Source: Amphiscolops sp. MND2022 (lineage: Eukaryota). Taken from it: a stretch of 64,000 nucleotides of DNA. The translations under genes were made by a program, and so were the position numbers. The stretch's first letter is position 1. Every line of letters begins with the position of its first letter. The stretch lies in the NCBI GenBank assembly GCA_964187785.1, contig OZ076409.1, forward strand, positions 32,056,001-32,120,000. Reading direction: 5' to 3'. This document shows, piece by piece, positions 1 to 49,960 of this stretch. Under the pieces are notes generated by a model. That model did no database searches. It was not told the DNA's origin and saw only the letters and a program-made list of their open reading frames with translations.

Positions 1-3000
1 GAAGGTGCCCATCCGCATCAAAAATACCTCACCCACACCATTCACCATCAAGAAAAGTCAGTGGTGGTCGAATTCCACATCACAACACCAAATGTAGCTA
101 AAAACATCAAACCTTTATCCGCAGCAGCAATAAAAGTCCTAACCGAAGATGATTCGGAACAAGCACTTGAATACGTCAACGAGCACCTGAAAACTACGAA
201 AAATCCGAAATGTCCCAACAGTTCTGGTTCCCAACCCCAGACAACCCAGGTGACCTCCACTCACACTCCTGTCCAAAGATGGATCCTCAGGGAGATAGAA
301 GAGTTGGAAGAAATCCAGAAACTTAACCCCATATGCAGCCAACAAGACAGACAAAAACTCCTGGAGAATTTTAAGTGGGATGATTCTCAATTAGACGACC
401 AAAACCGAAAAACATCGAGAACATACTTGTCGAATACCACGACATATTTGCCCGCCACCGCTTGGACATTGGCGTCAACCATGACTTCAAAATAAAACTG
501 ACACCAAAAAACGACCAACCAGCTTACACGCAGAGCCTACCCTGTCCTGTAAATCTCAAAGAAGACCTCACAGTGGAAATAGCCTTGATGCACTACTACG
601 GCATCATAACCACACTACTTTTCATTAAATACGCTAGCCCCATTTTTGCTCAACGAAAGCCAAATGGGCGAATTCGACTGTTAGTTGACCTTAGAAAGAT
701 CAACAATCAAATAGTTGACGATTACACGAACAGCAACCACCCAGTCAGCACCTTCTCCGACGCCGCACAACACCTCGCCGGAAAGAAGTTATTTTTGCAA
801 GCTAGACTGCTCCCAGGCTTATCACGTCCTGCGAATGGCAGACAAAAAGTTGGTAGAACTACTAGCTTTCAATTTCGCCAGTCGAACATTCGCGTACCTG
901 CGACTCGCTCAAGGGCTCAGCAGGTCCCGCTCCTCCTTCTCGAGCTCCATGAGAGAATATCTCGATCGAGTCATCAAAGCTGACAAATGCGCTCAGTACG
1001 TCGACGACATCGGGATTGCCACCCACAACTCCGAGGAGCTGAAGACCAACCTGCGTGAGGTTTTTTCAGTGCGTCCGAGAAGCAGGTTTGCGTTTGACAA
1101 TGGCCAAATGCCAGTTCGGCGCCAAGGAAGTCCAATTCCTCGGACGAACTGTGTCACCCGAAGGAATTGCTCCACAAGACCAGAAGATTCAGAATTACTT
1201 GCAAAAATTGACTTTCCCAATGCCGGTGCCAACTTACTCATGACCGATGCCAACTTCAAAAACGCGGGTTACGCCCTCATGATCGAAGAGAACGCAGAAG
1301 AAAAGATCACATCAGTAAGGAAAACTTGCGCACCAGTGGCATTCGGTTCCAAAATGTTCTCTACGTCACAAATTAAAATGTCTATATACGCGAAAGAATT
1401 CCTAGCCATGTACTTCGCCTTTATGGAATACAGCCACATCCTATGGGAATCAACCAAACCGGTTGTCGTCCTCACGGACAACAAATCTGTGACACGCTTT
1501 TCCAGACAAAAATCATCTCTCCAGCCTTTTGGAACGCGTGCGATTTTGTCCTCCAATTCCACTTCACCATTGTTCACGTGCCGGGAAAAATGAACACAGC
1601 CGCTGACTTTCTGTCCCGCCTCGACATACAGCCGAAAGACAAGGTCCACATCACGATACGAGACGACATACGTACCACACCTATCCAGGTGAACATCCAT
1701 TTGTCCGACGTCACAGAAGAGGAGCAGTTCCTCTTCATTCCCGGAGACGATACGGAAACTGAGGAACAAATCTGGGAACGCAAACTTCGGGCACGCAAGA
1801 AAATCGAAGAAGGCGGCAATACCAAACCCCACACAGATGAAACAACCACCGAAACAACGGGCAGTGACCAAGAAGTCACTACAATTCAAGCGGAAGTACT
1901 AGTAACCCAAACAATCTCCGAAACTACCAGTGAAGACAATGGCCATCGAAAACTATGCGACATCAACAAGACCAAGACAACATCCTGAGAAATTATAAAC
2001 TCCCCTTGCTCAAAGAACCTTACAACGAGCAGCTCGATACATTGCCCAGGACAGCAGAATAATCTTAAAAGATGGACTGTTATACCGGCTGTACTATGAT
2101 CACGCAGGAAAAGTCAAATTCCTACAGATTCTGCTACCTGAGCACTTAACCGACTCATTCATCCTAGCGCACAATGGACAAGCAGGCAAACACCCAGGAA
2201 TAACCAAAGTGATACAACAATGTCGGGAGAAGTACTACTCTCCAGGCATGGCAGCCAAGATAGCTCACCACATCTCCAGATGCACCGAATGCATGCAGAC
2301 AAAACGCACAGACAAGCGGTCCATAACGCCACCGATGATCGACACGTCCAAAATGGCCCTAGGCCCAGAGGACGCCCACCAAATGGACATTGTCCCCTTT
2401 GATGAGCCCTCAGGTGGGTATAATGCAATCGTCACCGCAATGGACGTCTTCTCTCGCTACCTTTTCACGTACAACGTAGTAAACAGATTCCCCCACAGTT
2501 GCCCGAGTTCTTGTAGACAGCATGACCCGCCACGCCTACCTCCCACCCACTGTTATTACTGACAAAGGCAGTCAATTCATGTCTGAAGATATGGCCGACG
2601 CGACCAGGATCATGGGCATGCAATTTATACATGCCACAACCAAACACGCCCAAATTATCGGAATCTTAGAAAGATGTCATGCTTCACTGAAACAGTCATT
2701 GATGATATCAAAGGGAGAACGACGAACGATGTGCACCAGTATGTAGCCATAGCAACACTTAGCTACAACACATCGTACCACTCCGCCCTGGGCTGGGAAC
2801 CCAGCAGAGGCTTCCATGGAAGAATCCCCTACAATGTGCTGGATCTCAAATTTGGCATACGAAGCGGACGCCACTCGACACCGACAACAAACCCAGGAGA
2901 AGACATTCTACACAAAACACACCAGATCAAAGAAACAGTGAAAAAAATTGATGCGATCCTACATGCGATACAAACAGTATTACGACAAAAAAAAGCAAAT

Positions 3001-3633
3001 GCTCACCCCCTCCACGTCAACGAATACTGCTACGCACTCCACCCCAGAGCGAATACCCAGAGTACTAAAATCCCATTCAGAGAATATCTCTGGACAGGAC
3101 CCTACATTATCGTCAATGTGCTCCCAAACAACAATTACCTTATCCGAAAACTACAGACAAACAGTACACAAATCTTTCACAGGATCCGCCTAAAACCCTG
3201 CCCGACCGACAAATCACTACCGGACAAACCCGTCTTACCTAAAGATTACATCCCAGACACGTAAGTAGACGTCTTTCACGATGACCTATATCCTCAAGCA
3301 TGGCAGTCAAATTCTGAGGATTTTACCACAATACCCAACATCCCAGCTCAAGCAGAACCCACAATAACCATCCCTGAGAGACCCGAAGAACAACGCACTC
3401 AAAAAGAAGCCCTAACACCCGACCCAAGAGAGCTTCTCTCGGCACCTAACCCAGATGAATACCCAAATGACACAACACCTAGCCTCGGTTCAGACAACCC
3501 CGAAAACGAAATCCCACGCCCCAATTCGCCACGAAAAAACAAATACAATCTACGAGCAAACCCCCCATCGAACTGGAAAAAGGATTATGCTTATTATAAC
3601 CCGATAAACGTTGACCCTATCTCACAAAACTGA
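1..3633 (+). pseudogene. pol: Gypsy pol (RT, RNase H, integrase), frameshifted
   Basis: RT motifs YASPIFAQRKPNGRIRLLVDLRKIN, KLDCSQAYH, LAQGL, QYVDD; RNase H MTDA, YAKEFLA, LTDNK, ADFLSR; integrase H..H..C..C (HPG...CTEC), MDIV, ITDKGSQF, ILER, and WTGPY. Spread over several frames, with an apparent deletion near 1220. Confidence 0.95.
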
Positions 3634-3971
3634 ACATTTAATTACTCGGAAGGATAATCGTCTCATCTACTGACCTAAATTACTACCTATGATTAACTCA
3701 ATTACCTTTAAACTCAACTACGAACTCGAGACAAAAACAACACAAGGAGCAAAATATACTAAAAGACGCCCCACGCCCACTTTGGACGAAGATTCATTTT
3801 TTGTTTTTTTTTCGCTTCAATACTAACTATCTTCTACAAGCGATTAACACATTTTTGGCTCAATCAACAACATACACACTACGTAACAAAGAAGTTCAAG
3901 AAATTCAACAGTAATAAAATATCAGACTACAAAGAATATACAGTTGAATGTTTCAACAAATCCAGGAGCCA

Positions 3972-6900
3972 TCACCGCTTGCTACCATTTTTCTTGTCCT
4001 TGGAGACGTTTGACGAAAACTGACCTGAGGACAACATTTCTTTTCGTTCCTGACGTCTCTGCTGCAACACTCGGGTGTCACTTGACCGCACAGGACTACA
4101 TATCAGTAGGGACTTATCAACAGTAACAGCACTTGAGGGAGGCGGCGTACTCGGAGAAACACGTTTCACTTTGGCAGCATCAAAGTACACACAAGAACCA
4201 GCCTGCGGATTAGCAACATCAGCGTCAGCAGATGGAGAAACGCTCGAACCACCCGTGCCTGCAACTGACAGTTTCGACAAGATGCCCAAACGGTGACGCC
4301 AGTCGTCCATCTGCTCCAGAAAGTACGCGTCAAAGCGATCACGTAAACTACGGTACAAGTCCTGGTGGCAATGTTGATACACCGTAGTCCACGGAGAGAA
4401 AGGAGCATCCTCAATAAAGTTCTTCTCAGCAGGAAGATTGACCTTTAGATCATCCAGACAGTCTTTCGTTAACACTTCCCCAGAACTGAAGCCAGAGAAG
4501 GAAACGTAGGTCTGCACAGACAGAATAGCCGAAGTAAGAATCTTCGACGGAACAGCCACAACATTCAACGAGATGTCCACATCAGGATACGACACTTCGC
4601 GAGGCACCACCAGAACTGAGGAGAATTGAACAACTCGTGACAAATGGTCTCGACAACTGAAAGCCTCGGACTCCCGCATGAAACTAAAAGTGTCTTTGAT
4701 GGTAGACACTATCCGGCGATCCCGCCGACGCAACTCCACCAAGAACGACTTGAACTCGTTGCAACATCGTTCAGCCTCTACAGCAGTCAATCGTCCACAC
4801 ACTTGGTAAAAAGCAACGAGACCGCGAAATAGCTCAACATTATATGACTGTTCGCCTAGAAGCAGCATATCTGGCGAAAAACAACTCAAGTTGGAAAAAA
4901 GGCAAGAATTCATAAAGGCGGACTCATTTAATACTCTCAGTAACCCCATAAGTAAAGAATAGCACTCGCAACGAAAAGAACGACGTACTGCAGCGGTACA
5001 TCCAGCCAATGCCTTCACCACAACGGGTTCTCCTACTAGGCACTCCGCATACGATATGTTCGGCCAGGTTGTCAAAGGTGTGCCGACATACTCGCTCCAG
5101 GCATCAATTTCAGGCAATTCAGATACCTTTTCAACTTCGCTGAGCAGACTCCAATAAAAAAAGCAGAATTCAGCATAATTCCTGCAACTGTAGTCGGTAA
5201 CCTCAGCAACGAATTGTTTCTCGAAATTGGACAAGAAACACAGAACCAGCACTTGCAGCACACACAGTCGGGGCAAAATATGGTCATCAGCCAGCACCAT
5301 CTGACTCAAGTCTTGCGGAACCTTGCTCCGGGATGTTGAAACTACACCACCCTTGCCCAAGAACAGCTCAATATCTCCCCAATGATTGTCTATCTCATCA
5401 AGAACAACGCTGAGAGAAGCGAAAGGAATATCCCGCTGTTGAATACATCGCTGCAATGTTGCAAGTCCAAGCATCCAGGACTGTTTCAAAGCACGGTGAA
5501 AGCGCAATAGCAGATACACAAAAAGAGCGAAGCAGTCCAAAGCACTGGAACCATTTTTGCCCGCTTCCTGAACATGCTCTTTGAACACCTTTGGAGTGTA
5601 CTCAGAAATGAACACAGGTTTGAGCTGACACTGCGAAACACACCACTCGGTCACCACAATGGAGAGAGTCGATGAAATCCCCCGCCGGCAAACAGGCGAC
5701 TGTCCGGCACGTAGGATGGCAAACATCCGGGACAGACCAACAATCTCGGAATCACAAAGACCCGGCAACTCGAATTCCCACAAGACGCAAACCTCACGCA
5801 AGGTGCCATTAGCAAAACATTGCACATAAAAGCGCAAACCATCCTGGTCTTCCCGCAGGCCTGCACTGAAGAAAGAATCCTTCACTCATCCTTGAACTCG
5901 GCGAAGAATCCGGGGGTATAGAGTATGTCCAATTTTTTACTTACGTCTCCGTCTCCGTCTACAACTAGAATCCACAGGGAGTGCCGCCTGGAATTGACTC
6001 CACAACCGTCTCAGAAAGCGATGATACCCCCACTACGAATCAATTCAAATAAACCTCCGACTAGGGTTGAAGACGGCACGTTTGACACCACCCCCACTAA
6101 CGCATCGACCTCATCTTCTAGGAAGAGATTTTTCTTGCCCAGGACTACCGCAGAAGTCTTCTCGATCTCGGCCCGCAACTCTGCAGAAATTGACGAAACA
6201 GGCACCCCATCGAACCGAGTAGTATAGAGGACATCCTCTTGGTCCAAACGAAAGCGACGATCTTTTACGAAGTTGCTTTTGCTGATAAAGTAACGCCAAA
6301 TTTCCGGCTCACCCCGACTGAGGAAAGACACGTCCCTACGGCACACAGCACAATTGAACCCATTGGAATTCCGGTCGGATCGGCGACTCAGGAACAGCTG
6401 TGGCAGAGCATGACTAGCCATTTTTTTGCGCAACACATTATGTTCCACTTGTCGCCGCTTTCTTCTCTCATACTTGGCATAAAGCCGGCGTTTCGTCTCT
6501 TCCTCCGCGTTCATCTGGGACTGTCTAGACTACATGTTCTTCCCTTTTGACTTCAAGAGGCGGACGATTTCAGTGAGACCTAAATAGACAAACAAACCAA
6601 TACCCCGGAGCATACACTTTCAGAAGACAACCAATTATGTGAGAACAGAAGAAGCGATAGAATAACCCAAAGGCACACACACAAAATCAAGCACAAAAGG
6701 AAACTGACGTTTTGAGAAACTACGTTCATCTTCTCGTTTTTGACTTTGTTCCAGTCTAACAGCCGCCTGCCCAAATGCCAGCACTTGTGACGAAGAAAGA
6801 CACATAGCCCCGGATGGAATATCTGAGAGACCAGCTGAAAACATAAACCAGGATGAGTCACAAGCCCCAATGCTATACAAAGAAAGACACGGGAAATAGG

Positions 6901-7882
6901 ACAATGAAGTTTCCAATATCAATGGTAATCACCTTCCTCCCATTCATTGTGGAGGACAGACCGCTCCAGACCGACACTAGGCCGAGCATGTTGGGTACGC
7001 TAACAAGTTTTACCAGAAGATGGCCCAGATTCAAAGGCTACAGTGCCACTCACGATGGCAGTCGTCCCGACAGTCACTGGCGCCAGACGTCGGACCAGAC
7101 TCTTTGTGTGCACCCGCACCAGGCAACAGTGGAGTACTACCTGGAAACACACCCTTACTCAATGCCATCAATACTACCTTAGTACGACCATGACAGAACG
7201 AACACCTACTGAATTCGGGCAACTGCAGAAACAACGAGTCATCACTACCCTCGTCATCTGATGAATCCAAAGCAGCAACTCGTGAGCGCTTAGTAGTCGC
7301 TTCCGGAAGAGCAGAATGCAATCGCTTGCTACGGCGACTACCAGATTCACCAACAGAACTCCCAGGCACAAAATCTGCGTCGAGAGGATCATCACTATCT
7401 CCTGCACAAACCCATATTCCATTAGAAGAATGACGCGTCTGTTTACTAGCATAAAACTGGTAGCTGGCCACTAAATAGCTAAGAGACTTACCCTGTCGTT
7501 CGCAAAGATAGTCCAAAGAATGTCTATTGTCACTCTCAGTAGAATGGTCTAAATCGTCACAGTTTCCCTCTCCTTCAACACCACCTTGCTCGCTATCACA
7601 CTCGTCAATCTGGCCGAAACCAGCTACGGGTCGACCAACCGACCCAGAAACCACAGGGGACTGAGCTACCGTCTCACGTCCAGCATCGTCTGACTCCTCT
7701 GCGATCCTCAATTGACCCTCAGCAGCAAAATTGTCTTCACCCACTTCCTGTTCTTTTCCAGAAGTTAACTCATTTTCAGTGTTTTCTCCATCATTGCCCC
7801 GTGACTCGAACTCACTTTCTAACACTCCAATTTCTTGCGAACGCATAAAACGCGCAGCATCCTCATCAATTGACTCAGCCAT
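3972..7882 (-). pseudogene. Antisense multi-exon cargo gene of element 1; degenerate hAT-transposase-like protein
   Basis: ORFs 7031-7882, 6011-6514 and 3972-5885 on the minus strand. Candidate GT-AG introns 6932-6835 and 6723-6580 keep the frame. A CAVC zinc-finger-like segment and hAT-like spacing of motifs are present. Confidence 0.6.
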
Positions 7883-8158
7883 CCTCTCTTTTTCACAAAC
7901 AATCTGAAAATACCACTCACTCGAAGACGTGGTGTAAAATCAGCGAAGAATAATAATATTAGCTACTACTACTATGACGTAATGGAAGTCAATCAGTCTG
8001 CCAGCTGGAAACTCTCCCAATCACGCAAGCGACGTGAACAAGTATGAAAGGAATAGAATTATCATTCAACTACTCAGCCATTCCTGAAACAGTCACTTAA
8101 CATCACACACAATTATCAGCCTCATTATCACACCTAGCTTACTTTCATCGCTAATACA

Positions 8159-8739
8159 ATGACTTCATTAGATTTGAACTTGTCAAGCGATTGCGTTAAT
8201 CTGGAACGCGACCAGGACGCATTTCTACAAACCACCGCTGCACAATCAACACCCAAGACGCCGGTGATTCATGAAGAAAACAAGCACGTATCTATTATTC
8301 AAGACGTATATGAGCTCATCAATACAGGGGACGAACACATCGTTCTTTACCATGAATCAACCCCGACATCTATATTAATGACGGAACAGGACATATTACC
8401 AATCAGAAGATTCACTACTTTTAACCCAATTATACCAGACGACGTCTTTATGAGCCCACCACACGAGTCTATGAAAATATGAACAGCTGGTTGCACAGTC
8501 CGAACGAGGCAGAAATGAGCCCTGTATCAAACAAAACAAGCTCGATTGGATACTTCTCGGGCAGCGATTGGTCTTCATTATCAGAGTCTACGTGGTTTAC
8601 TTATGACTCACAAATTCAATCTATCTTCCTTCCACCAATATCGTCTCCATTCAGGCCAATTTCCCTACTTCCCCCTTATTGGACGCTCCTCAAGAAAGCA
8701 GGGGACTGTCACAGCCCCAGCGGTGCTGCGAGGAAATAG
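8159..8739 (+). CDS. Small hypothetical ORF pair in the 3' region of element 1
   Basis: Overlapping ORFs 8159-8482 and 8479-8739, divergent from the antisense gene; no recognisable motif. Confidence 0.25.
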
Positions 8740-9848
8740 ATCAGTTGAGGACGCCTGAGGAGGAAAGTGAAGAAGATGACTAAAATAACAACATGAGAAC
8801 CTGAAAGAACTAAACCAACAAACATCCACTGACACATAGAACAACTATATAGTTATTTAAAGAATATTAATAAATTGATCCCAGTGCAGTACCTAAATTA
8901 CATGAAAATGTAAATACTTAAATAATATTAAGTGCTGTAAAGGTGATTTGTTTACAGTAAATTGGCCGGTGCGACGAGTGGAATTAATCCAACAAGCATA
9001 TCGACTAGTTTACTGTCTCAATAACAGAGGAGCTGAACGACTCAATTTTCATTCTCTCATAAATCAACCAATCAGCGATTAGCGCAAATGAACAGCACAG
9101 CGCTAGCGGAGTAGTCATCCTAGTGAACTCTTCAGTCGACCGAAATCTAGGACGACCGCCCAGTCGCTCGACTGAATAATTAATAAAGATGCATTAAATA
9201 ATCAGCACTCTGTGCTAACCGTAATACAATCCCAGCTCAAAAGAAGCTGAAATACGATAGAATATGCATGTAAACGAAGGAATAGTTACCTAATAATTTG
9301 GAATTGATGCTAACGAACAGACTTAATAATACTAATTTTGAGTCAACCACCCAGGCAACCTTCCAATTGTACTTAATTTTGAAATTAACTCCCATTACCT
9401 ATATTACTGTCCTAAAGATTTATTACGATCAATGTACAATGTATAATACATATACGGTCCTAATCGAATTTGTAAAACGTTAAAAGGATGAATAGTAGTG
9501 AAATGTGCCGTAGTGCTATTGATGAGATAGCAAGTGTGAAAAATATTTGTCTGAATCCAAAATGACACCCCAGTCTCCTCCCCAACAATCTAAACTTTAT
9601 TTTTTCGCAGAACGATGGAACTATTCGATTTAAGGGTGTACACTATTTACACCCATCGATGCGGTATTACCATTCCCTTGTTACGTATTAACCAGTCTAA
9701 TATGCTGTTTTGTTAAATGTTCTACTAATAGTGAAATTTGTTCAAGCAATTCGAAGTCAACACTCTAGTCAACCGTTCAGTCGACCTGGACTAGAACGAG
9801 CTACCAGAAGTGCGACCAAGATAATTAATTGTCCATTCAATGTGAAAA

Positions 9849-10885
9849 TGTTGGTGCTGAGGAGTACTTAATTATTATTTAAATTGGAAAATGTACTTAT
9901 TTCATATATTGTGATATCGGTGATTAATTCCCATTTTGTTTCGATGTAAACTTATTACTTTTCCCGCGTAAGTTGCTAGGTCCATGAACTTCCATTGCAA
10001 ACTGTGAACTCGGCGTCACAAATTGGCAGGAAATGAAGGAGAAGGAACGCGGAATCAGGACTTCGGAAGGAAATGAATTCCCACTTTTCTTGAAGTGAGA
10101 TGAAGCCGAATGCCGAGGCCTGAGGAACCTTTCCTAATTCGGATTTTCCCGCCATGGAAGGAAGCCGAGTGGAACGAGGTGTGAGTTCACGTGCGAGATT
10201 TATCCCGCGTGTCTAGCGAAAAGTATAAATATACCTGACGCTGGTTAAGAGTGTTAAGTGTTGAATTTCCTTAGGATGAAACCAACTTGAAGCAGTTTTA
10301 CCCTTGGAAAGATCACACTTTTGAAACTATCAGTGATCTAATTTCAGCATTTTGTATCGATCTTGTTTGTTATTTTGCCAACTTCCAGTTGTTCATATTT
10401 TGTTGTTTATCTTGATCAAGTGAACTTGTCTTTTCTGAAACAAGCACTAGAAGGCTGTCAGTTTTTCTCGACTATTTGGAACTTGTTAATTAATTCAAAT
10501 CTTGATAGCCAGATAGTTTCCGTCGATATGCCCGAAAGGTCTCAGAAAAGAAAACTGAGAAGAGACCAACCTGAGCACCATGAGTTGGCTGAAGAGTCTA
10601 GTTTGCAGACTGACCAAAACAATTGTATCTCAGAGCAGGACTTCGAAAATATATCTAGTAAAGTTGAGAATAAAGTGTCTGAGCGTTTGAGAGATACCGA
10701 ACACAATCAGAGAGAAATCCTTAAATTGATAGAGAACTTGACAGCAAAGGTAGATAGTTTGTCTAATTCGACATCATCGGAACCTAACTATCTTAACTCT
10801 AGAACCGAAATCGACGGTAATTTGCAAGGTATTTCGGTATTCGAACACATCGATATCCCCGGACAAAGTAATGAGTACTCCAACA
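9849..10885 (+). repeat. Probable 3' LTR of element 1
   Basis: Starts TGTTGG and ends CCAACA (6-bp terminal inverted repeat). TATA-like GTATAAATA near 10222. ORF MPERSQKRK... from 10528 runs to the LTR end. Confidence 0.55.
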
Positions 10886-11600
10886 GGTACAGATACTACT
10901 TCCGAAAAAACGGTGTTTTCTCTCCCTTTTTTCAGGAAATGGCCAAGAGAGTCACCCTAAGGAACGTTACGACCAGTAAAAAAGGGCGAAATCGTTGCCC
11001 CACTAGCCGTAGCACTGCGAGTATCCCACTAATAGCTGTGGCCATTAGGTATGAGGCACTGTCGATCCAGGAGCTATATAAAATTCGGCAAATTCCACCC
11101 TTTCTGAGGTCAAAACATCAAGGAGTTTTTCTCAACTTTGGCTGGCGCTAGGCTCACCAAAATTTTTGGTAGACGTTATTTTTGGTGGCGGTCGCAAAAA
11201 TGTAATCAGTTTTCAGGTAGGGTCACAATATCTATGACCTGGCCCTACCTTTGAGACAGTCCGGATGGATGATAAAATTGGGCATTTTAGTGCATTTTTG
11301 AACTTTTCTCGCCACTGGAAACGAAATTTTTGACGCGGTTTTCACCTTCAAACGTCGTTTTTACTATATAAACAAAAACTGCGAGCTCTTGAGCTCCCAG
11401 ACAACAAAACGATTGAGTGCCATAGCAAGTTTAACAATGTACTCGGAGACTTCGGGAACTAGTCAAAATTTAAGGTTTTTGGGGCCGAAGTCACAGTTAG
11501 CTTTTTCAAAAGTACCCAAAAACTCGCTCCACAGTGCCTACACAGTGAAGTGTACCCTAAACTAGTTTTAGTATACTTGGGATTCTAGGATGCTCTGTCA
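10886..11600 (-). repeat. Diverged inverted relic related to the 5' leader of element 2
   Basis: Reverse-complement matches in collinear order to ~16050-16730: CCGGACTGTC, GAGAAAAACTC, TGGGGCAACG, AATCGTTTTGTTG. Ends are approximate. Confidence 0.55.
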
Positions 11601-12573
11601 CAGTTCTCCAGTGGCGTTCATCAGCGTGCTCAATCCCTATTTTTACAAAAAAAAACCGTGTTTATCCTCACAAAACTGTCAGAATGGTGCTCACAGCGGC
11701 ATTTTTGAGTGCTCGAGCGTGTGTTGACCAGTCAGTTGGGGTTTTTAACTACTTTTCGTTAGATCTGAACGGTTTTCTCGGCTAGCATCAAGAGCCCTTT
11801 CGCTCATATAGGTGTTTCACCTCAAAAATTGTAGCCTCCATGTAACGGCAAGCCATAGCCGTTCAATATGAAGTAGAAGGAACTCCTGAATGGGACAGGC
11901 GCCCATGCCATGCGCCCAATTTGCTTCCTGGGGTAAGAATCGTCCCGATTCTGCCTCTAAAGAGTGCTCACTGGCCTGTTATACTCTGTTATTGCCAACA
12001 GCAACGGGCATTTCAATTTTTTCTCGGAACCACCGATTAGCTGGCCTTCAAAAACTGGAAGTAACAAAGTATCAATTAATTAGGTTAATTTCTTCTATCG
12101 ACAGGGAGTGAAAACAGGTAGCTCTTGAGCTATGGCAATCAAGAAAAGGCAATTTACCACAGCATAAACAATAGACAATAATGCACTGTTAAGTAATAGA
12201 ATGGGGACACGTAGTCACCGTAGGCTTATTCAAGCAAAGAAAAGCATTCTAGCAAGTAATCACAACAATTAGCAGCATAATGCTCAAGACTCAAATCCGT
12301 CGAAGTCCTTTTAATGACACAGTCGTGGTGAGCGGAATTTGACTGAAATTCGGTAGTCTCAAATTTTGAACGAAATTCTCAAAATTTTTCCGCCGACCGT
12401 TAAATAAAAAGAACTGCCATGAGCGTACAAGAATCGTAGAAAAGTTCATAATACGTTTGAAACCATAAAAATAGGTGAAAGACACTAAATGTTGATTTTG
12501 ATGTCGATAAACACCAATCGTTATTCCGGGAAGTTTGGGAGCGAAATTTATCTGACGTAAATCGTTTGTACAG

Positions 12574-12788
12574 GTACTATGTTCTTTTTCCCGTACATTC
12601 TGTGGAAGCAAGCGTGTTCTTCCGTGGGTCTGGATGTTGATTCCTTGGTGAACAGCCTGACCACTTTCGACTCAACCATCAACTCCGAGATCTGGCAAAA
12701 GACCTTGACCCATGCCGCGCACCAGATCGAGAGGTACATTGAGAGTCAGAGGGAAATCAGGTCTGGATACCTAGTCAGCGCAAAAAAA
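12574..12788 (+). CDS. inx: Innexin exon (end of TM2 and cytoplasmic loop)
   Basis: MFFFPYILWK matches the innexin TM2 proline motif. Acceptor tacag at 12573; donor GTGAGT at 12789, phase 0. Confidence 0.85.
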
Positions 12789-13444
12789 GTGAGTAGAGAT
12801 TTTACACGAGGAAACAACTATCCCAATTTCAATCATGACCAAATTTTCATTCGAGTGAAACCTTTGTTGAAACTTGCACAGAGGAATGCTCGAATATAAA
12901 TCTGAGATTGCATATAGTCAGGCTAGGCTCTCTTTTTGTTGTAGAGATCAGCACTTACCAAGAATTGTCTCAAAGTTTATTGCCATATACCTTTTAAAAA
13001 GAAATCCACCAAAGTTTCAGATGGAAACCACCATAATTCAAAATACTTACAATACACTTTACTATAAACCTATTGTTCTACTGCGTACGGGATTACATAT
13101 CATAGATGTTAATAAAAAAAAATTTCAAATTTATAATTATTGTTATTTTTTTTAAAATGGAAAGAGATAAACCATAAGCGTCACAGTTATTTTCCTCATG
13201 CCATTTTAAATGCTATACCTGGGCATATAGAAGCAAATTTAATTGAAATAAATTTTTGTAAGATAGTCTTTGATGATCTTTCAACCAATCAGACACTTTC
13301 AATTTATCACTTTCAATCTCAAAGTTGTTGAACATGATTCGTGAGCTAATCAGAAATTGGAAGTTATCGTGCTTTGCTGTAATAATAGCAACACTCAAAG
13401 TAAAGTATTTCCCGCAATAAATATTGCAGTGATTTTTGTTACAG

Positions 13445-13721
13445 GCTCTCATTTTCGGCAATAAAAGGCGAAGTGATTATCTGACTTCTTTCTATCTGTG
13501 TTTGAAAACTGTCTACGTCATCAACATTTTCGCTCAAATTGCCTTTCTTAACTGGCTGTTGGGCTACTCATTCAAGTACTACGGGCTCAAAGTCATTGAC
13601 TCCAGAGTAACCCCCACAGGCCTGGATGACGGCTACAGGAGGTTTCCAGCTGGACCAGACTTCGAACAGACATTCGGATTCCCCCACGTATCTCTCTGCG
13701 ACTTTCGCGTTAGGATACTTG
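13445..13721 (+). CDS. inx: Innexin exon (TM3 and start of extracellular loop 2)
   Basis: YLTSFYLCLKTVYVINIFAQIAFLNWLLG and FPHVSLCDF (innexin FPRVTxCDF). Acceptor tacag at 13444; donor GTGGGT at 13722, phase 1. Confidence 0.92.
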
Positions 13722-14317
13722 GTGGGTAAACAATCAGATGTTTCCCTAAAAATGCCTATTGGAAAAGTCCGTAAAAAATTATCTAGACAGTTGCCCTGTA
13801 TAAGAGTGTGTATGTTTGGGTTTGCGTTGCAAATTAAGCCCATGAAGACCGTTTATCTAAGAACTCTCTTTAAAACGAAACTAGTTTTTTCCGCCGTGAA
13901 AATAAGATAATAAAAGTTAGAGACTGTAGACTTTTTCCTTCAGAATTTCATTTCATTCTGGTCAGTTCATGATTGTTGTTGCTAATATGCATGCTTTCAA
14001 GTGTGTTAATCACCCAGGAATCAAAAGCCACCCTTCAACTGAATATTTCATCCGGCTACTTAGGTGTACGCAAGTCTCCCACGACACCAAATTCAATCGA
14101 TTTCTGTTCATTGAGTTTCCGTAATTCAATTTTATAGCTAGACTTGCAGTAAACCAAGGGCTATTTCTAGTGATGGAGAATTGAATTCAAAAAACAAACT
14201 TATCCCGATAAACTAGGAACGTGCGTATAACGCAACATGTTAACTTTTTTGCAGTGTACCTGTTGCACAAGTACCCTTAACAGTAAGATTTTCAAGCCGT
14301 TTTTGTTGTTTGAGTTT

Positions 14318-15042
14318 TGTAACGGCACCCTGTGATCAACAAATTTTTCGAAGTTTGACGATTTTCTGAAAAATTCGTTCAAAAGTGACGTGGCCCTCAA
14401 ACATGAGTTCACGAGGTACCAGTCCTGCAAAATCATAAAGAGCGTGCACAAGCAAAGCCCGCGAGGCGGAAAAAAGAAGCGGAATGTCGAAAAAGTGCGT
14501 GAAACGTCATAAAACAGAAGAACCGTAGCCTATGCGCTAATTCCCACGGTGCCCATCACAGTTTGCACAGAATCAGCATGTTCGAGTAATTATACTATCC
14601 GGACCCAGGGTTGTGCCGAACCCGAGAACCAGTGCCATGCCACCTAGACCCAATTCGCCAAACTGGATTTTAACTCTTCTTTGACGTGTTATCGATTTGT
14701 TTGATGAATTTTTAATTCGAGAGCTACTCTTGTTAATGTTGATGTCATTTACAATAGATTCCCCTCTGGATCATTCAATTTAGTTCTATGCAACTCGACC
14801 CCCTTTTTACAGGCTATTTACACAGTGGATACGAGGAAAAATCGTATTTCATGTGACTAGTAGCAGTTACAGACCGGAGCAGGTCAGAGAGCATCCCTAG
14901 AGACGGTTCTCCCTTCTCGGGACCGGCATTCCCTAGGAGGACAAAATGGACTGGAGTTATGGTGATTAGTCCCGGATCTTGACCCATAGCTTCGGTTCCT
15001 CCATCCCTTGTAGCGAATAAACGCTCAGCGCTTTTCATTACA
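14318..15042 (+). repeat. 5' LTR of element 2
   Basis: Near-identical to 27624-28348; TG...CA termini; AATAAA near the 3' end. Confidence 0.95.
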
Positions 15043-17662
15043 TGGAACTTCATTTTTTGGCGACCACAGAGTGATCGTCTTTGGGAAGCTTTCCTTCATG
15101 GTTTTAAAATTTCTGACTCTCCGGTGTTTAGCGCCAAGACCGTTTCGACTCTGTGGGAGAAGCCAGAGTTTTGCTCCTATTTTAACGACTGTATGTATTC
15201 TTGGCTGTTGGAACAAAGGAAACCCAGAAAAACCCGAAGAAAATGCGTTTTCAGGTGGGAAAATGGCATTTTGAGGTTGAAAAAACCGTAAATGCATGTG
15301 GTAAAATGTCATGTTGTGTCAGCCCATCAGCGGGTATTTGTTTGACAGGGAATGGCCTTCGTAGCACGTGGCTACGTGTGTTAACCGGTATTTTCAGCTA
15401 TTTTCAGCTTTTTGAGTCATGCATGCCAGGTTTCCGCTGGAGAATAATCCATACTCCACCAGAGCGAAGAGGATGCAAAATGGGGTGTTTGGGTTCGTCA
15501 TTTCCCATTTCTCGTGGAGATGCCTGCCAGGGGTGAAATTTGGTGGACAGAGAGAACATTTCTGACGAAGATACCGTTCCAAACCGCAAGTCTCTAGCTG
15601 GTCTGGATGTGGAGAAATTGCGTGACGAAGATGCACCCCCTTGGACCAGAAATGTCGCTCAGATGGGACATGGTTCGCGAAAATTTTGAGATTGCACCTT
15701 TTTCATGGGGAATCGTTAGTGCAGGTCAGTGATACTTTATAATGTAGCGTCGCCCAGTGAAACGCCTTTGAGCGAAGAAACCAGAGATTTTCATTAAAAA
15801 GACAAATTTTCGCGTTTTTTGAGTGTTTTCTTTGGTTGGAGCACGAGTACTCCGTAAACCCCAACTAGCTTTGCCAGAAAGGTGGCAAAAGTAGCCTCTA
15901 ACCTTGAAGGAGCTGGGAAAAATAACGGGCAATGGTTCCCGTGGCTCTTTTAGGTGAAACAGTTGGAGTTTCCAGTAAAAAGTGCGAAAATTGGGAAAAA
16001 AGGTGAAAAACGCCCAAAAATTACTACTGTACCTAGGTGTAGAGGCCTGGGGCACTGCTGTAAAGCGGTTTCTCGAGTGACTCACAACCCTGGGTACTGG
16101 AAATAGCTTTTGCTAATCGTTTTGTTGGTATAGAGACCAAAAAAGGTTTAAAAAATCCTGTAATTTTGGCTGTTTTTGGGCCTTGCAGAGCATATCATTA
16201 AAAGCTCGAATAACAAGACCTTTAATCAATTCTAGGACCCCAAGCGCTCTCGTATTTTGTTTTTGTGATAAAAATAACGCATTCTGGTGAAAACCGCGTG
16301 CGAAACTTCCCATTCAGTGTCAAGAAAAGTGGAAAAACGCACTAAAATCAGCTCCTTTTCCCCTAAACCGGACTGTCCAACTGTTAGGGTCGGGTCATAA
16401 ATTCCCGAGCCCTAGCAGAAAAGTGGTTACATTTTCGCAACCACCAGTTAAATAGACGTCTATACTGTGGTTTTGGCGGGTCTAGTGTCAACCATGACCG
16501 AGAAAAACTCTGACGTTGTGACGACAGAGCAAGCTCAAATTGCCAAAATTTACCAAAATTGTAGGACTAGTAGTGCCCTACACCGGACGAGCGCGGCTAA
16601 TTGAAAGCCTATGGTAGTGCTAGCATCACTGGGGCAACGCGTTGACCCTCTGACCCTGCCGTAACATTTGTAGTGTCGACCCTCTTAGTCGATTTGTGAA
16701 AAAAGCGTCAAAAAGACCGTTTTTGCTAAAACCCTCTCCACGCCTAGCCCAGATTCCCGGAGAGCCAAAGAGCTTCCACCAAGCTGTCATACCAGCGTTG
16801 TGGGTACCCACTGGGAGCGTGTATCAAGTTTCGTGCCAATCGGTGCAGTATTCGTTGAGAAATTGACGAAAACATACTGCACAAAAACGGGAGCAAAAAA
16901 GCGATATTTTTCAAAATTTTTTGAAGTACCCAAGCACCTTGGCCGAAAAGTGAGGACAAATTGTCGCTCACCATCGTAACCAATACTAGTTGGCACACCG
17001 CTAGTCAAAAAATCGAGCCGCTGCTAGTAACCAGTGCCCAGATAGCGAGCAAATAGACTACATTTTGGTCCCTATTATAAGGTAGGAGTACCGCACGTCT
17101 GTACCGCGGCAGTTTACAAGTATCGGGAACAAGTATCTCAAACCAGTGGTCAGTTCCGTGTACCTACGTGTGTGAAGGATCCCCCAGCAAAATTTGAGCA
17201 AATTTCGACCGCTAGGTGACGGACACGAGCCACCTGTGTTTTTTTGGCATCGTTCGAGAAAAGTCAAAAATTGCTGTGAATCCTTCCCGATCGTCTCATA
17301 GATAACCGCGATCTGAGTTCATTTTCCGCACTTGTGACTGAAAACCTACTACGTGTGCGATTTTGAGCCTGCTACGGCCCTTTGAAGCGATTTCGACCTT
17401 CTCGAGGCATTCGGTAGTTGAAAATTAATTGTTTAAGTCCACACCGAGACGACTGGAGGTCTATCACAGTCTAACACACTTCGGTGACCTCTGGGAACGG
17501 ATTGGGCAAGCTGAGGACGCCTCATAGTCAGGTTGAGTACCTTTCACACAGGTAACGCTTCCAGATTGGTACGGACGAACGGCAGTACAGCCCAATAGCC
17601 TAAAAACTAGAGATATTGGTGTATCTTCTTGCGCCTTATCGCAGCTCAACGGTTGAAGCACC

Positions 17663-20274
17663 ATGTTTTGGGCGAGTGTGGCAACCATAGTCCGGCTGTT
17701 CACGCGAAGCGCGGAGGAAGCTAGCGAGTCTAGTGCACCTGAGGCTATCTTTCCGAGCGAAACGCAAGAGAAAAGCTCGACCCAACGAGAAAGTTCAGAT
17801 ACTATTAGTCAGGCGAGTTTGCGAGAGTGGCCATCTGCGGAATCATTGTTAACCGGTTCCTCCTTTTCAGAAGCAATGAGCGACAGCGTTACTGTTGATC
17901 AACAACGACGAGAAGAGCAAAACGCTACGGCCTTAAATTCACCTGTATCGGAAGAACGTATCCGTACTGGACAATGGATTAAAGACAACCGAGGCGAACT
18001 GGCTGGGTTGTGGCCCAATTCCAATCAAACGGCGGTGGACGTGACCCCAGTGCGTGCCGGGTGCACAGAAACACCCAAGAACAACGACAGCCCCGCTAGT
18101 AAAGATACCAATGCTATCTTGGAAGGCATGACTTACGTTGGTGGGATGAACTATGCCAAGTGTCGTTTGGAAGCTTGTCGGGCAAAGACCTCTGGCAAGC
18201 AACGAGCCTTAGCACGCCTGGCCGACACTCATGCCGAATGTAATGAGCAACACAAAGTCATGACTGCAGAATTGGAAGCCATGCAGGACTCCGTGAAATG
18301 TAGCCTGAGGAGCGCAACTCAACAGACGACGGTGCAAGCCGCAAAGGTGGACGCCATGGGTCATCGCCTGAATGACATGAAGGACTTACTCCTCCAACGC
18401 GAACTGCGTATAGAAGTACGGCTGGCTAAACTCAGTGACCAGATGCGTACTCTAGGTGCTGTATCCCAAGCAACGACTCCGGAAGTTGAGCAAACTGAGG
18501 TTGCTAAACCTGTTGCATCCACGAGTAAGATGGTGCCTATGCGCAGCCCCAACCCACCGATAACATTGAAAGCATGCCCCAAAACGGAACCCAAGGTGTT
18601 CATACCGCCAGTAATGGGCACGAAGACCACAAAGGTCCACGTGTGCACACCCAACTCACTCAGCGCAGTACCAATGCCATCGATGACGTCACCCGGGAGT
18701 AGACCCTATGCCGACCACGTCATCGACCATTGACCTGACCGACACCAGAGCAACTGCTGGCTCACACGCTAGCAGTACGGAGGATGAAGCCTATACCACC
18801 GCCAGGGTAAGAACCGTTGGAACCAACTCAATGTTCTTAACCGCGAGCGAAGGAATTCTTACAGGCAATCCTTGTGCAAGCCCGCAAGAAGGACACTGCG
18901 AACGGCGAGTTGTCTATGCAGGCCACCAGAGGCAGTCGAGACGACTCTCCAGCCCCTAGTGAGGGAGAGGAGGTAATCTCTCCAGAACAGCTGCGATTCA
19001 CAGCCGCCATTTCCAAGGCCATGTCCAAAGAACTGGCCCCTCTACTGGCTGGACGTGACCCAACTCAAGCTAGGCCCAGCGTCTACAGGGGATCCAAGGA
19101 AGGCCCAAAAGTATTCGAACTGCTAGCCAGTCGATTTGGGACTGGAGGCAACCGCTTGCAAGTGCGCCAAGCCTTGACCACTCGGCAGCAATCTGAGAGG
19201 GAAGACTGGATGCAATACTTGGACGCGCTAGAAGGGCTACGAAGCCAAGGCTTACCTGACGAGTCAGTCACTACCAAGCGTTATGAAATCCGCATCGATG
19301 GCGTTCGCGATCCCATCTTGCGAAGAGAATAATCTATTATTTATGCATCCGAAACCACTGTTAGCCAACCTCCCACGGTAGAATCTTTACGATTCACAAC
19401 CCGACAATTGCAGCGTACTAGATCCAAGTCTGCACTGTATGACCCAAGGTACGCAATGAGGTCAAGGCCTCATCCTTTAACACCATTACCAACCAACAAG
19501 ATGGTGCTTCCTCAGGGGGTTCTACCTCCCCCACCCGCTAACAATGCCCCAACAAATGCGGCAGCTGCACAACCCACTGCACGCCTTCCCCTAGGCGCTT
19601 GTTTTAACTGTGGTCAGACCGGACACTTCGCTCGAGACTGCCCCAACCGCGACCAGGCTCGCAAACTTACAAGTGCACCAGAACCTGAGGGGGTGAAAGT
19701 AACAGCCGAGGACATAACTGATGGCGTTCTGGAGAATTATCCGGGATTCCGCCAATGTGCTCATTGTGGGATATTTGACCATGTGGATTCACCGTGCACC
19801 AGAAACCTTGTAATCCCAAACGAGGAGCTTGCTTACAATCGCTGGACCGAGGTAGAATTGGCTGTAGTCACTGCCCAAACCGTACCTTTAGAAGATGATC
19901 GTGTGCTAATGTTACATCCAGCAGAATCACCCGCGTTCTACACCCCCCTGACTATTACCTGCGGTGCCAAGCAAGTTCAAACCTGCTTAGAACCAACCAC
20001 TTTCGACCCTCAAGGACGAACGCTGATTTCTATACACTTGATGTTGGCAGCAGAACAATTGCGTCGACCAATACTAACATTGGTCAAACTCTGGGTCGAA
20101 CTATCACTCTTGTACAAGCGCGTGGAATTACCCCGCCCCAAGGATTGGTACGCCCCAGGGGATTCTGACACCCTCACAACTGATTCCCCCGTGCCTATCT
20201 GTGCCACCATGGATGGCGTAGATCTAATGTTTGAAGCCTGTGTAGTAGTGGATGTTTTTCTCCCTGACATCTGA
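17663..20274 (+). pseudogene. gag: gag-like region of element 2
   Basis: Coiled-coil N-terminus, capsid-like segment (RQQSEREDWMQYLDALEGL) and CCHC knuckle CFNCGQTGHFARDC; broken by frameshifts and stops. Confidence 0.85.
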
Positions 20275-23200
20275 TTGGGCCCCCAAGAACTCAAATGTTA
20301 CGACATAAATCATCAAGAACCCACTGGTGAGGCGCGAATAGACGAGCGTGCTTCACTCGTTGTCTCCTTTGTTGTGCCCCAGGTGGCACCAATTCCATTG
20401 CGAGGACTTGTTGATACAAGTTCAGGTGTGTCAATGACCTTTTCAGGCTTAAACCGTATAGCCGCCCAAACAGGCACTGTATTGAAGCCGTACCAGATTG
20501 ACTTATATGCTGCCAACGGTAAAACCATTAAAACTTTTGGTTTGGCCGAGCAGATCCGTTTTCAGCTGGGAGGTTACGAGCTCGAAAACAAATTCGTCGT
20601 GGTGGATGATGCCATGGGCGTGGAAGACTTCCTATTGGGCCGTAACTTTCTCCGAGCCTATCAAGTGCTCGTGGATCTAACCTCCATGAAGATAATGCTC
20701 CGTGCACCCGTGAAACCTGTTTGCCATCAAGCACATACACAGGTAGGTGATGCTTCTGTAGCTACTCCCGTCGCTTTAGACAGCGACTTGGTTCTACAGC
20801 CATTCGAACGAACGGTTGTCAAAGCAAAACTTATCACCAATGAACTAGAACCACTGATATTCCAAAATGTCATACTGAATGCGGCAATTGCTGACGTATC
20901 GCTGCAAAACATTGTGTTTTTAGAGGACAGCGTTGCCACTGTCAGTGAAGCAGGCCATGTTTTTATCAGCGTGTCCAGCAACCCACAGCGAGTACGAAAA
21001 GGATTCCGGTTGGGCAATGTGGTCCCTGTATCACTGGTCTATCAGGCCATTCCACAGCAGTCTACACCTCAACCTACCCAACGAATTGAAGTGAATAACG
21101 ACCAGTTTGCGTTTGTAAACAAAATTTATGAAGAGATGAATTACGATACTGATTCGCAATTAACTTCTCCTTCTGAGTTTGAGTTTTTGTCTTCAACAGA
21201 CCCTGCTGAGGAAGGTCTTTCAGATCGCGAAATACGTAAGCGTACGGATCCCGAACTCATGGCTCCAGTACAGTACCTGAGTCACAACTCAAGGAGGTCC
21301 AGGACCTATGGGGTCCCAAAGCCAGCGCTTCGCTCGAAAGCATCCTAACTGAATTTGATGATTTGTTGAAACACAAGGCTGATATTGGTCGATGCACTAT
21401 AGCCAAACATCCTGTCGAAATCGAACCTGGTGCAGGGCCCCACCGCGAAGGTGCGAGACGCATGTCCCCCGAGAAGGCAGAACGTGCCAATCAAGAGGTA
21501 CGCAATTAGCTCGCGCTGGGCATGAATCAGCCCTCCTTGTCACCTTGGGCAAGCGGGATAGTCATGGTCAAGAAAACAAATGGCGAGTTACGTTTTTGTT
21601 GTGACTTCCGCCCTTTAAACTAAGTCGCCATTAAGGATGCGTATCCATTGCCTCGCATCGATGAGAGCCTCGCCAGGTTGGGCAAAGCTAAAATCTACAC
21701 CAGCATCGATTTAGTTTGGGCTTTCTGGCAAATTCCCGTCCGAAAAGCTGACCGCCAGAAAACCGCCTTTGCCTGCGAATTGGGGTTGTTTGAGTGGCGA
21801 CGCATGCCCTTTGGTATGTGTAATGCCTCTGCCACCTTCCAAAGAGCGATAGCCCGAGCGCTACGCAAAATCGAGAATCGTGAAGGTAGCATGGTAATGG
21901 CCTACCTTGATGACATTGTCATCGCCACAGAAACGGTGGAGGATCATATGGTACGTCTTCGTGAAGTTTTTGAATGCTTGCGTGAAGCTGGCTTCAAAAT
22001 GAGGGTTGCTAAATGCAACTTCATGAAGTCCGAGACCAAGTACCTAGGTCGTGTCGTGTCAGCAGAAGGAATAAAACCCAACTCCAAAGCTGTCGCAAAG
22101 CTACGCGACTGGGAAATTCCACGTAACAAGACGGAAATGCAGAGCATTCTAGACTTCGCCAATTTTTACCGCGAGTTTGTTCCTTGGCATGCCAAATTGG
22201 TAGCTCCCTTGCATGCCATCACCGGCATTAAAGCCACTTTTGCCTGGCGATCTGAACTAGCCTTCAATGAGATCAAAAAAGCACTCATTGACGCCACTGC
22301 TCTTGCGCAACCAGATTCCGAAGCTGAATTTGTGCTGGACACCGACGCCAGTGCTGTTGCCATTTCAGGCATACTTCATCAGTGGCAAGGCCCACCTGGA
22401 GAAAGGCGCTTGCGCCCCATTGTGTATGGCAGCAAAAAACTCAGCGCCACCCAGGCCAAAAATGGAGCGCCCAAGCTGGAATTATACGCGACATATCATT
22501 TCATCGTGAAGAACCACATGTACTTGTGTCCACGAAAGTTCACGTTGAGAGTGGATAATCAGGCGCTAGCATGGTTAAAAACGTACTCCACGGACCAAGC
22601 CCTCATTGGTAGATGGATAATGGCACTGGAAAATACCATTTCCGTGTCGAACACCGACCACGGACACAACATCGCAATGCCTATGGCTTGTCCAAATACC
22701 AATGATTGTCGATTGAGAAAACAACAGCTCGAAAAACTACCATCAGTTGCAGAACGCTGGAATTTTCCCTCCCAAGACGAGTACGAACGGCTGCCCACTG
22801 CACCTTGGTTTGATGTACAGGGACGAGTGATTCCCAATCATCCCGAGCTACCTTCACACTTGAAAAACCTGCAACCAGACCCCCCCTGATCTGGTCCAAC
22901 GCGTGATTCGCCGCACACAACCAGTCAAACGACGAGTCAGGCAGAAGGAGGCACTGCAAGTTCCCCTGCCCCCACTGTCGCCTCCTATCCTACACGCCCA
23001 TGAAGATTTCTATTGCGATTATCCGGAAGACTGGAGAGATGAGACTGAAGAAGCTCGAAGGTTTAGTGGAGCGCCAAAACCGTACCTTGCTTACTTTGTT
23101 ACGTGTTTTTTGTTCGCAACGAATGCGCGATTGGGATCAGCATCTAGATGAGGTCCTTGGTGCTTACAACTCTACGCGCCATGCAACCACAGGGTTCTCG

Positions 23201-23599
23201 CCCTACATGTTAACCAGAGGCACAGAAAAGGCAATACCTCTCAGATACTTGTACCCTGAGTTTGCCACCCAGTCTTTTCCTACGCACGACGCGTACGTGG
23301 ACCATGTGTTGGCACGCCAACAAGAAATTCATGATTTGGTGCGTAGAAACACACACCAAGCTCAGCTGCGGCAGCAGCTTGAATTTGACCGCGCAATACG
23401 GGCCAAAGCCTACGCAAAAGGCGATTTGGTTTGGTTTTTCTGTCGGTATGTTCCTCAGAAGGGTTCCCCCAAACTAATGCGCGCCTGGCGTGGCCCACAC
23501 CGTGTGGTGCACACCCTGCAAGATGGACGTGTTTACATCCTTGATACAAGGCAAAAGGTCCACTTCGAGCGTCTCAAACCCAATAATAGTGGCATCTAG
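20275..23599 (+). pseudogene. pol: pol of element 2 (protease, RT, RNase H, partial integrase)
   Basis: Protease GLVDTSSG and LLGRNFL; RT MPFGMCNASATFQ and AYLDD; RNase H LDTDAS and VDNQAL; integrase C-terminal half GLVERQNRTL and WRGPH. The integrase zinc finger and first catalytic Asp residues appear deleted near 23050. Confidence 0.93.
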
Positions 23600-23866
23600 A
23601 ATTTGTCGCTACCCCTCTTGACACCGGCGACATAGCCGTAGTCATGGATCCGGAGCCTGAACACTCTATAGAGCCCATAAATGATGACTGTTCAAAACTT
23701 TCCTATAATACTGAACAACTGCTTTCAGAAGCCTCGAATGACCTTCTCGTCAGTGTCACTGGATGGATACTAGACTACGCACAAAGCTGCGTGCGGGAGG
23801 GAACCGCCAACATTACCAACAATTCGACTACTCCCGTCCGACAAAGACGAAGAGACGTCGAGGGCG

Positions 23867-25740: not shown

Positions 25741-25950
25741 AACCAACCGTAAACCCTGGTTGTTCCAGAAGGTTTTACTGTGCTGTTTACTTAGCTTAGT
25801 CATTAATCACTTTATCTAAACCCGGTCGAGGATGCCTTCAGCATCCTGTTTTCATCTAACGAATTCCCTTATGGAATCGGTTTTAACAAAGCACTAATCA
25901 GCATCCGTATGGTAGGAATAACGAACACTTATTTTTAGACCCATGATAAG

Positions 25951-26825
25951 ATGGCATACCATCACACGGCCCCTGCCCATGCCCAGCCTAGTCAAAACGC
26001 TGCTCGAACACAGCGAATCAATCAAGTGCAGTTCATTGAAGAGACGCTGCGCAATGGCATTTCGCCGGCGGCTGTGGCCGGAATCACTGCTCCCTTAGCG
26101 CAGTTAGAAACCCAGCCCACTTTACCCAGTTTAGCCGTATCCATAGTAGCCGATGTGGCAGGATACAAGCGCAATATGACCTGCCGAAATGGATCAGTGT
26201 GGCGGCACAAATACGCGATCGCAACCTGTCGCGTCGAATGGCCCCCCTGCAATATGAGCCTGCCTGGCGCCCACAAGGACGCATGGCTATGTCTGGAGAC
26301 ATGCCATTTCCACTGTTAGACATAGTGAATCAGGTATTAGGCGCGGAAATGCGCGCTGAATGGGATGAGGAGTGTCTCAACTTCGAAGTCAGCAAGTTCA
26401 AAATGTCGAAACAAGCTTGTACGCTTTGGAAGCAAACCGGCTGGGTATCAAAGCGTGCCACATTAGCAGCCAACCACCGTGCTGAGGAGGAGTGCGCCGC
26501 ACGGTATGCTCCGCAAATGTCACAAACTGCCGCTCCTCCTACTATGGCGATGTCACTAGAGCAACCACTAACAGTAAATGCTGATCCAATGGAAGCGGAG
26601 GTTGCAGAAGACGAAACAGCTATGCCTGTAACCCCTAGCCCTTCCGGAGAACATGAAGCAGAGCTGACTCCCAACGTAGAGCTGGCTGAACCCATCGGTG
26701 AACTCACCATTGATACCGATGCCGAAACTGTTGTGCCTTCACCAGTTAGACGAGCGTCTGTGAGCGATGCCTCACCTCCACGAGAAATCTCTCCTCGAAG
26801 CAGGAATAAGTCTGCTATTCAATGA
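25951..26825 (+). CDS. Hypothetical 3' ORF of element 2 (frameshifted, acidic/Pro-rich tail)
   Basis: Overlapping ORFs 25951-26319 and 26199-26825, preceded by an acceptor-like TTTTTAG at ~25932-25938. Confidence 0.35.
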
Positions 26826-28348: not shown

Positions 28349-28367
28349 TTTTTTCACTGTTTTCCAG

Positions 28368-40207: not shown

Positions 40208-40380
40208 CTTCGAGTTTCCTGAGATCAGGTGAACGAAGTTTGTCTGTTCATCTATGCTGCACGCCGGACTTCTCGCAAGGGTAACCTGACGAGTCGTCAG
40301 GTTACCCTTGCGAGAAGTCCGGCGTGCAGCATAGATGAACAGACAAACTTCGTTCACCTGATCTCAGGAAACTCGAAGAT
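40206..40380. repeat. Perfect palindrome, 87-bp arms, 1-nt centre (40293)
   Basis: ATCTTCGAGTTTCC...CTGACGA G TCGTCAG...GGAAACTCGAAGAT. Confidence 0.97.
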
Positions 40381-43218: not shown

Positions 43219-43369
43219 AAAATAATTATTTACAAATCTTAATACATGGGAAAAGATAATTTATCTCATCCCCGTAGGAGAACAAAGGCGTAGCTTCGCG
43301 TTGTTGGCGCAGCTTCACACAACATTAATACACAAGAATGAAATATAACTAAAAAGTGAATTATCTCTC

Positions 43370-44938: not shown

Positions 44939-44947
44939 AGCTAATAA

Positions 44948-49934: not shown

Positions 49935-49960
49935 GTTCCCAATAATTTTTTTTATTATAA

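Follow-up and report, generated by a model that had tools for sequence, protein, structure and literature searches.

The stretch analyzed here (the window; 64,000 nucleotides (nt) of Amphiscolops sp. MND2022 contig OZ076409.1) begins inside the pol gene of a Ty3/Gypsy long terminal repeat (LTR) retrotransposon, and behind pol it carries a gene on the opposite strand. It is very probable that this antisense gene originated from a hAT DNA transposase and is carried by a Gypsy family. An earlier note on this DNA had proposed that a retrotransposon co-opted a DNA transposase scaffold as an accessory protein; the co-option is supported, and the accessory role is suggested by conservation. The copy in the window is a dead fossil, because its gene is broken and both histidine positions of its zinc finger are substituted; the case stands on the family and not on this copy.

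The antisense gene in the window

Minus-strand open reading frames (ORFs) were found behind pol at 3972-5885 (637 amino acids (aa)), 6011-6529 (172 aa) and 7031-7939 (302 aa). The earlier note had reported such ORFs at these places, including the one of 637 aa, and the motifs it quoted are all present in them. The first two ORFs belong to one gene: an intact relative, P0001 (885 aa), aligned to 6613-6026 and 6029-3975 at 81-85% identity (tblastn). The main features of the gene and of pol were as follows.

Positions 1 to 3633, plus strand: Gypsy pol remnant, with the end of the protease region, reverse transcriptase, RNase H and integrase (Pfam RVT_1, RT_RNaseH, Integrase_H2C2, Integrase_p58_C)
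Positions 3972 to 6579, minus strand: main exon of the antisense gene, with one frameshift (about 6024) and stops at 6530, 5937 and 5886
Positions 6272 to 6352, minus strand: zinc finger C-x2-C-x16-H-x5-H, both His positions substituted in this copy
Positions 7492 to 7882, minus strand: likely first exon, predicted from sequence, with an ATG at 7882, 130 acidic codons (27% Asp or Glu) and a GTAAGT donor (7491)

The gene had been given a span of 3972 to 6514, where ORFs do lie, but it extends past 6514 to the exon start at 6579 and to the likely first exon at 7882-7492. A pyrimidine-rich AG acceptor at 6579 stands directly before the onset of conservation in the close family, and it shares its phase with the donor at 7491. 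The gene is predicted from these signals to be spliced, and a middle exon is possible, given an extra acceptor at 7401.

Frameshift-aware alignment of this copy gave one frameshift and three stops over 2609 nt in the antisense gene, versus 14 frameshifts and one stop over 3630 nt in pol. The excess in pol had P = 0.003 for frameshifts only and P = 0.05 for all lesions. The claim that the ORFs are better preserved than pol therefore holds for frameshifts but not for amino acid identity, which is alike in both (82% between the main exon and intact relatives P0001 and P0504, 84% between the pol remnant and its nearest intact relatives of 1774-1779 aa), and 5 of the 14 pol frameshifts fell at runs of five or more bases, versus a background of 8%. 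The order reverse transcriptase, RNase H, integrase (Pfam) is that of Ty3/Gypsy elements.

Several explanations of the ORFs were tried and rejected: selection acting on this copy, because the gene is broken and the finger substituted; a shadow ORF, because the opposite strand has no long sense ORF; and an env-like protein, because the predicted fold is that of a soluble transposase.

A family of intact relatives

Among 7999 candidates scored, 35 proteins matched the 637-aa piece at 36-83% identity, many of them 815-890 aa long in a single frame, and an alignment query contributed more full-length subfamilies. The clusters of these relatives had up to 104 members. Full-length copies were mostly 95-99% identical to one another, and subfamilies were 43-82% identical to P0001. 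Of 150 listed members in ten clusters, 78 reached at least 90% of full length. In other words, the check on whether the ORF is family-wide returned multi-copy, intact relatives.

All of the relatives were unnamed and without Pfam domains, and Pfam searches with the antisense gene and its relatives gave nothing significant. Sequence and profile searches of the PDB with the antisense gene gave no match, an Atlas search with the 637-aa piece gave no match at 0.8, and a related locus was not found in viral, metagenome and prokaryote collections. A profile search against 1.84 billion representatives returned 834 proteins at E ≤ 0.001, 150 of them listed. The 28 distant relatives inspected ended at common breakpoints, in the manner of exons. 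Those typified by P0131, P0141, P0151, P0159, P0184 and their kin were 18-37% identical and fell into three or more exon-sized pieces, and some of their clusters were young and multi-copy (28 and 21 members).

Predicted fold and catalytic site

The predicted structure of P0001 contained an RNase H fold with a large helical insertion and matched Hermes, in agreement with the hAT-like scaffold suggested previously. A viral hAT protein was the sole BFVD match at E ≤ 0.001. Identity to Hermes was about 10%. Within the family, the finger (mean identity 75%) and the helices at 181-250 (76%) are better conserved than the catalytic and insertion domains (46-53%) and the tail (24%). As regards the intertwined dimerisation domain of hAT transposases, the helices at 181-250 are thus well conserved, but the structural match begins at Hermes 133-143. 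In five of six proteins of the family, 7-12 of the final 30 residues were Lys or Arg.

The finger-like segment beginning CAVC that had been noticed in this copy is real, and its four ligands are conserved in the close relatives (C 25/25, C 24/25, H 24/25, H 25/25), but in the window both His positions are lost. It was folded well in a second model (predicted local distance difference test above 90). Fold matches to it were weak: BED was matched at E 7.6-8.6 only, and U1/matrin types scored alike. Comparable fingers are known in DNA-binding hAT proteins. The N-terminal finger of hAT transposases is described as a BED type with CCHH or CCHC ligands (PMC10368747; here and below, sources cited by PMC number are represented by part of their text).

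Hermes requires D180, D248, R318, W319 and E572 (PMC6027215). Their equivalents were placed by the strands of the model, by known hAT motifs and by the offsets at the ends of the structural match. The count covered 25 close sequences, of which 22 are cluster representatives and three are members of one further cluster. In this putative register the sites in the window were as follows.

Positions 5853 to 5855, minus strand: candidate first catalytic Asp (258; end of RNase H strand 1), Arg here
Positions 5682 to 5684, minus strand: candidate second catalytic Asp (315; end of strand 4), Arg here
Positions 5475 to 5477, minus strand: candidate equivalent of Hermes W319 (384), placed by motif, preceding Arg gone
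Positions 4581 to 4583, minus strand: candidate catalytic Glu (682), Asp in this copy by the motif register

At position 258 (model strand 253-259) the close relatives had R in 10, Q in 10, K in two, and H and L in one each, with an acid in 0 of 24; at 315 (model strand 313-315) Glu was present in 2 of 25 and Asp in none. Columns 256-261 and 312-318 contained no conserved acid, so a slip of the register cannot restore the triad. Position 384 was W in 25 of 25 and position 383 was R in none of them, so the R318-W319 pair of Hermes is not kept. Position 682 was D or E in 7 of 25, and the model had no helix at this site. The CxxH motif was absent from the 25 close sequences. Loss of the catalytic triad across the family is supported by these columns. 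The catalytic acids had been described as substituted in the window; this is the case for the first two, while the third is Asp here and its loss is seen as variability at the level of the family.

Association with one Gypsy clade

The gene does not have the borders of a nested DNA transposon. No terminal inverted repeats (TIRs) with an 8-bp target site duplication (TSD), the finding that had been named as pointing to an independent insertion, flanked it when left ends in 3634-3975 were compared with right ends in 6514-10400.

Co-occurrence of the gene with pol in other copies was read from contigs common to the two sets of proteins, each contig being recognized by its length, with 15 members listed per cluster and with listings covering part of the antisense clusters. 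The antisense cluster P0008 shared seven contigs with pol cluster P0228, P0011 four with P0227, P0028 four with P0237, and P0010 three with P0331, where the background rate predicts 0.04-0.06 per such pair. Among listed members, the gene was on 30 of 100 contigs of seven in-clade pol clusters and on 1 of 45 contigs of three sister clusters (Fisher P = 5e-5), though in one in-clade cluster (P0233) none of the 15 listed members shared a contig with it. Similarly, 6 of the top 12 pol matches and 1 of the other 108 shared a contig with the gene. The window itself is one pairing of pol and cassette seen directly. Taken together, these data support an antisense gene that is family-wide and tied to one Gypsy pol clade.

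Identities of pol and of the antisense protein were correlated across 25 contig pairs (rho 0.55, 0 of 2000 permutations). In 16 longer pairs the deepest clade was identical in the pol tree (a quick tree) and the antisense tree (FastTree), while three antisense clades were each paired with both of two pol clades, and pols 98-99% alike accompanied cassettes only 55-61% alike. This suggests that cassettes have been exchanged between subfamilies, with the caveat that one long contig may carry two elements.

Comparison with known systems

For decades it has been known that LTR retrotransposons can carry extra genes in antisense. ZBED and FAM200 are host-domesticated hAT genes. Such genes are fixed in the host, whereas the antisense gene is the multi-copy cargo of a mobile retroelement. 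DAYSLEEPER, also host-domesticated, is similar in being a hAT scaffold with a finger and without the Asp-Asp-Glu (DDE) triad, TIRs or TSD (PMC8616336).

Like hAT transposases (Hermes; PDB 8edg, 4d1q, 2bw3), the antisense protein is predicted to have, in order, a finger, a helical region, an RNase H fold with a large helical insertion, and C-terminal helices, and it shares the W of the Arg-Trp (RW) motif and the P-x6-x-x-x-hydrophobic-S spacing at the third site. Unlike them, it is without a conserved DDE triad, the R of RW, CxxH, and TIRs or TSD; it adds a basic N-terminal helix, a likely acidic first exon and a 150-aa tail, and its carrier is an LTR element. The gene is hAT-derived, yet with triad, RW and TIR/TSD wanting it is neither a hAT transposase nor a hAT transposon.

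The antisense ORFs of plant Gypsy elements (Grande gene23, RIRE2, Retand TRP28) are likewise antisense, behind pol and family-wide, and have been proposed as nuclear regulators (PMC11963269, PMC7264820). In the portions of those papers covered, no similarity to other transposons was found and the origin was called unknown; a 2020 review gave the same verdict on the origin of antisense extra genes and called capture from a nested transposon unsupported (PMC7264820). Here a hAT origin can be traced, and the host is an animal. The TRP28 domain (PF04195) had no match in 10 intact antisense proteins at E ≤ 5. The DEDDy/GDSL ORF3 of bdelloid elements (PMC5408684) and CERV of Cer1 (PMC10309623) are similar as lineage-specific extra genes gained or exchanged by Gypsy families, but these are sense-strand genes that are not transposase-derived; the word transposase occurs 0 times in PMC5408684. 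No LTR element with a hAT-derived gene was found in searches of the open literature, a scope outside which Repbase, subscription journals and supplements lay, and none is described in the covered portions of PMC6431247, PMC13547354, PMC5408684 and PMC10309623.

Here a probable capture of this kind can be seen: a class I element retains the scaffold of a class II transposase, apparently under selection. Domestication of transposases is thereby extended beyond hosts to other transposons, and young, intact, swappable alleles become available for studying how an accessory gene serves a retrotransposon. Because Pfam does not see the protein, comparable cargo may be widely missed.

Proposed origin and function

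The gene would go back to a hAT transposon that landed behind pol in antisense orientation and was retained after losing its ends and its catalysis. This orientation requires a promoter of its own, and the transcript, which would be spliced, probably starts at an internal antisense promoter around 7900-8150; the gene can keep introns because those in antisense are not lost when the sense genome is reverse-transcribed. Template switching could swap the cassette between subfamilies. On balance, it is probable that a Gypsy clade domesticated a whole DNA transposase as a regulator or counter-silencing factor, in a spliced antisense cassette that is swapped between subfamilies as env genes are among retroviruses. 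If so, this would be a cross-class domestication from transposon to transposon and the first traced origin of an antisense accessory gene in an LTR element, and the distant multi-exon relatives would mark an older, wider radiation of such elements.

The best-conserved part of the protein is its nucleic-acid-binding front end, and its tail is basic, which makes a nuclear nucleic-acid-binding protein likely. Hermes fingers bind short repeats within the ends of their own element (PMC10368747), and DNA is also bound by DAYSLEEPER, a hAT protein that lacks the DDE triad (PMC8616336). A selfish element is expected to keep genes that promote its own spread, which favors binding to its own DNA with a pro-expression effect: the protein may well be a nuclear zinc-finger factor that binds its own element and sustains transcription against host silencing, a proposal we make tentatively.

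Other functions would fit parts of the same evidence. Binding of element RNA, as a nuclear export factor like Rev or CERV, a chaperone or a decoy against small-RNA silencing, appears unlikely: the fold matches to the finger are weak, the finger resembles those of DNA-binding hAT proteins, and the transposase body of 500 residues, kept in full, is more than an export adaptor would be expected to need. A part in the pre-integration complex, in nuclear import or in tethering integrase to chosen chromatin, would suit the Lys- and Arg-rich tail and a scaffold of the kind that holds DNA ends, and it has been proposed for plant antisense ORFs (PMC7264820); both main pol clades are found with each of the three antisense clades, which speaks against a tight fit to one integrase, and we consider this role distinctly unlikely. 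A catalytically dead protein with an intact scaffold could also be a repressor that limits its own element or poisons active hATs as a dominant-negative subunit, making carriers better tolerated by hosts, given that hAT enzymes act as oligomers (PMC10368747) and that antisense RNA itself could silence (PMC7264820). Mixed oligomers with active hATs are improbable for a protein that is about 10% identical to Hermes and has long been diverging, and the carriers are young and numerous, so that repression is given little credence.

Certain observations weigh against a domesticated, catalytically dead cassette. Adjacency of gene and pol is directly visible in one copy only, nested insertions are commonplace, and the distant multi-exon relatives are not tied to pol (the P0131 and P0141 clusters each had one contig in common with it, within chance), as would be expected of a nested DNA transposon that is independent or a passive passenger and does nothing for the retrotransposon. 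That explanation is highly improbable in view of the missing TIRs and TSD, a gene that without a triad cannot move itself, ORFs intact across subfamilies 43-82% alike, and subfamily-specific pairing with pol. On the catalytic side, position 684 was acidic (D or E) in 25 of 25 close sequences and 10 of 20 distant pieces, and Glu occupied position 258 in three of five genuine middle-exon pieces of distant relatives. With the invariant W384 and further invariant acids at 411, 418 and 533, these residues could form a rebuilt nuclease site nicking DNA or RNA. However, the first two positions are mostly R, Q or K, neither the R of RW nor CxxH remains, position 684 varies between D and E, and the model lacks the catalytic helix; we regard such a site as very improbable.

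Other features of the window

Two further features may belong to the same element.

Positions 8707 to 10020, plus strand: candidate 3' LTR, a purine tract and then TGTCACA ... GTCACA, alternative start 8777
Positions 8159 to 8783, plus strand: short, broken ORF in sense orientation, pointing away from the antisense ATG and probably part of the element, judging by its position

The window, whose start lies inside pol so that the 5' half of the element falls outside it, contained no second copy of the candidate LTR. In the region 10024-11151, TGG follows the end of the candidate LTR at 10020, and an ORF at 10342-11151, without a Pfam match, resembles the coiled-coil start of a gag gene; the LTR may be common to, or the property of, a second truncated element. 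The sense ORF had no Pfam match, has an acidic end, and starts about 280 nt from the antisense ATG, so a bidirectional promoter between them is possible. In pol polyproteins of the same clade (P0228, P0237, P0392; 1700-1900 aa) a long Pro/Thr-rich region precedes the protease, and no gag domain was recognizable in them.

Elsewhere in the window, a second, complete Gypsy element (14318-28349, 726-bp LTRs 98.8% alike) lies among innexin fragments (Pfam, 12561-13726), which point to an invertebrate animal as host. About 4 kb behind its integrase contain long sense ORFs (23774-25213, 25090-25551, 26040-26825) without a Pfam match, a further extra-gene region. A minus-strand LTR element with reverse transcriptase and integrase spans 30661-38864, its repeats about 7073 nt apart. 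Perfect palindromes with arms of 306 nt and 87 nt, one base apart, occupy 39595-40380 and are either fold-back DNA or an assembly artefact. Long inverted repeats enclose about 14 kb at 42612-57003, with ORFs that had no Pfam match at 0.01; we take these to resemble protein-primed polymerase and capsid genes, and the region to be a likely decayed Polinton/Maverick. A perfect 10-bp tandem repeat at 63500-64000 reaches the end of the window.
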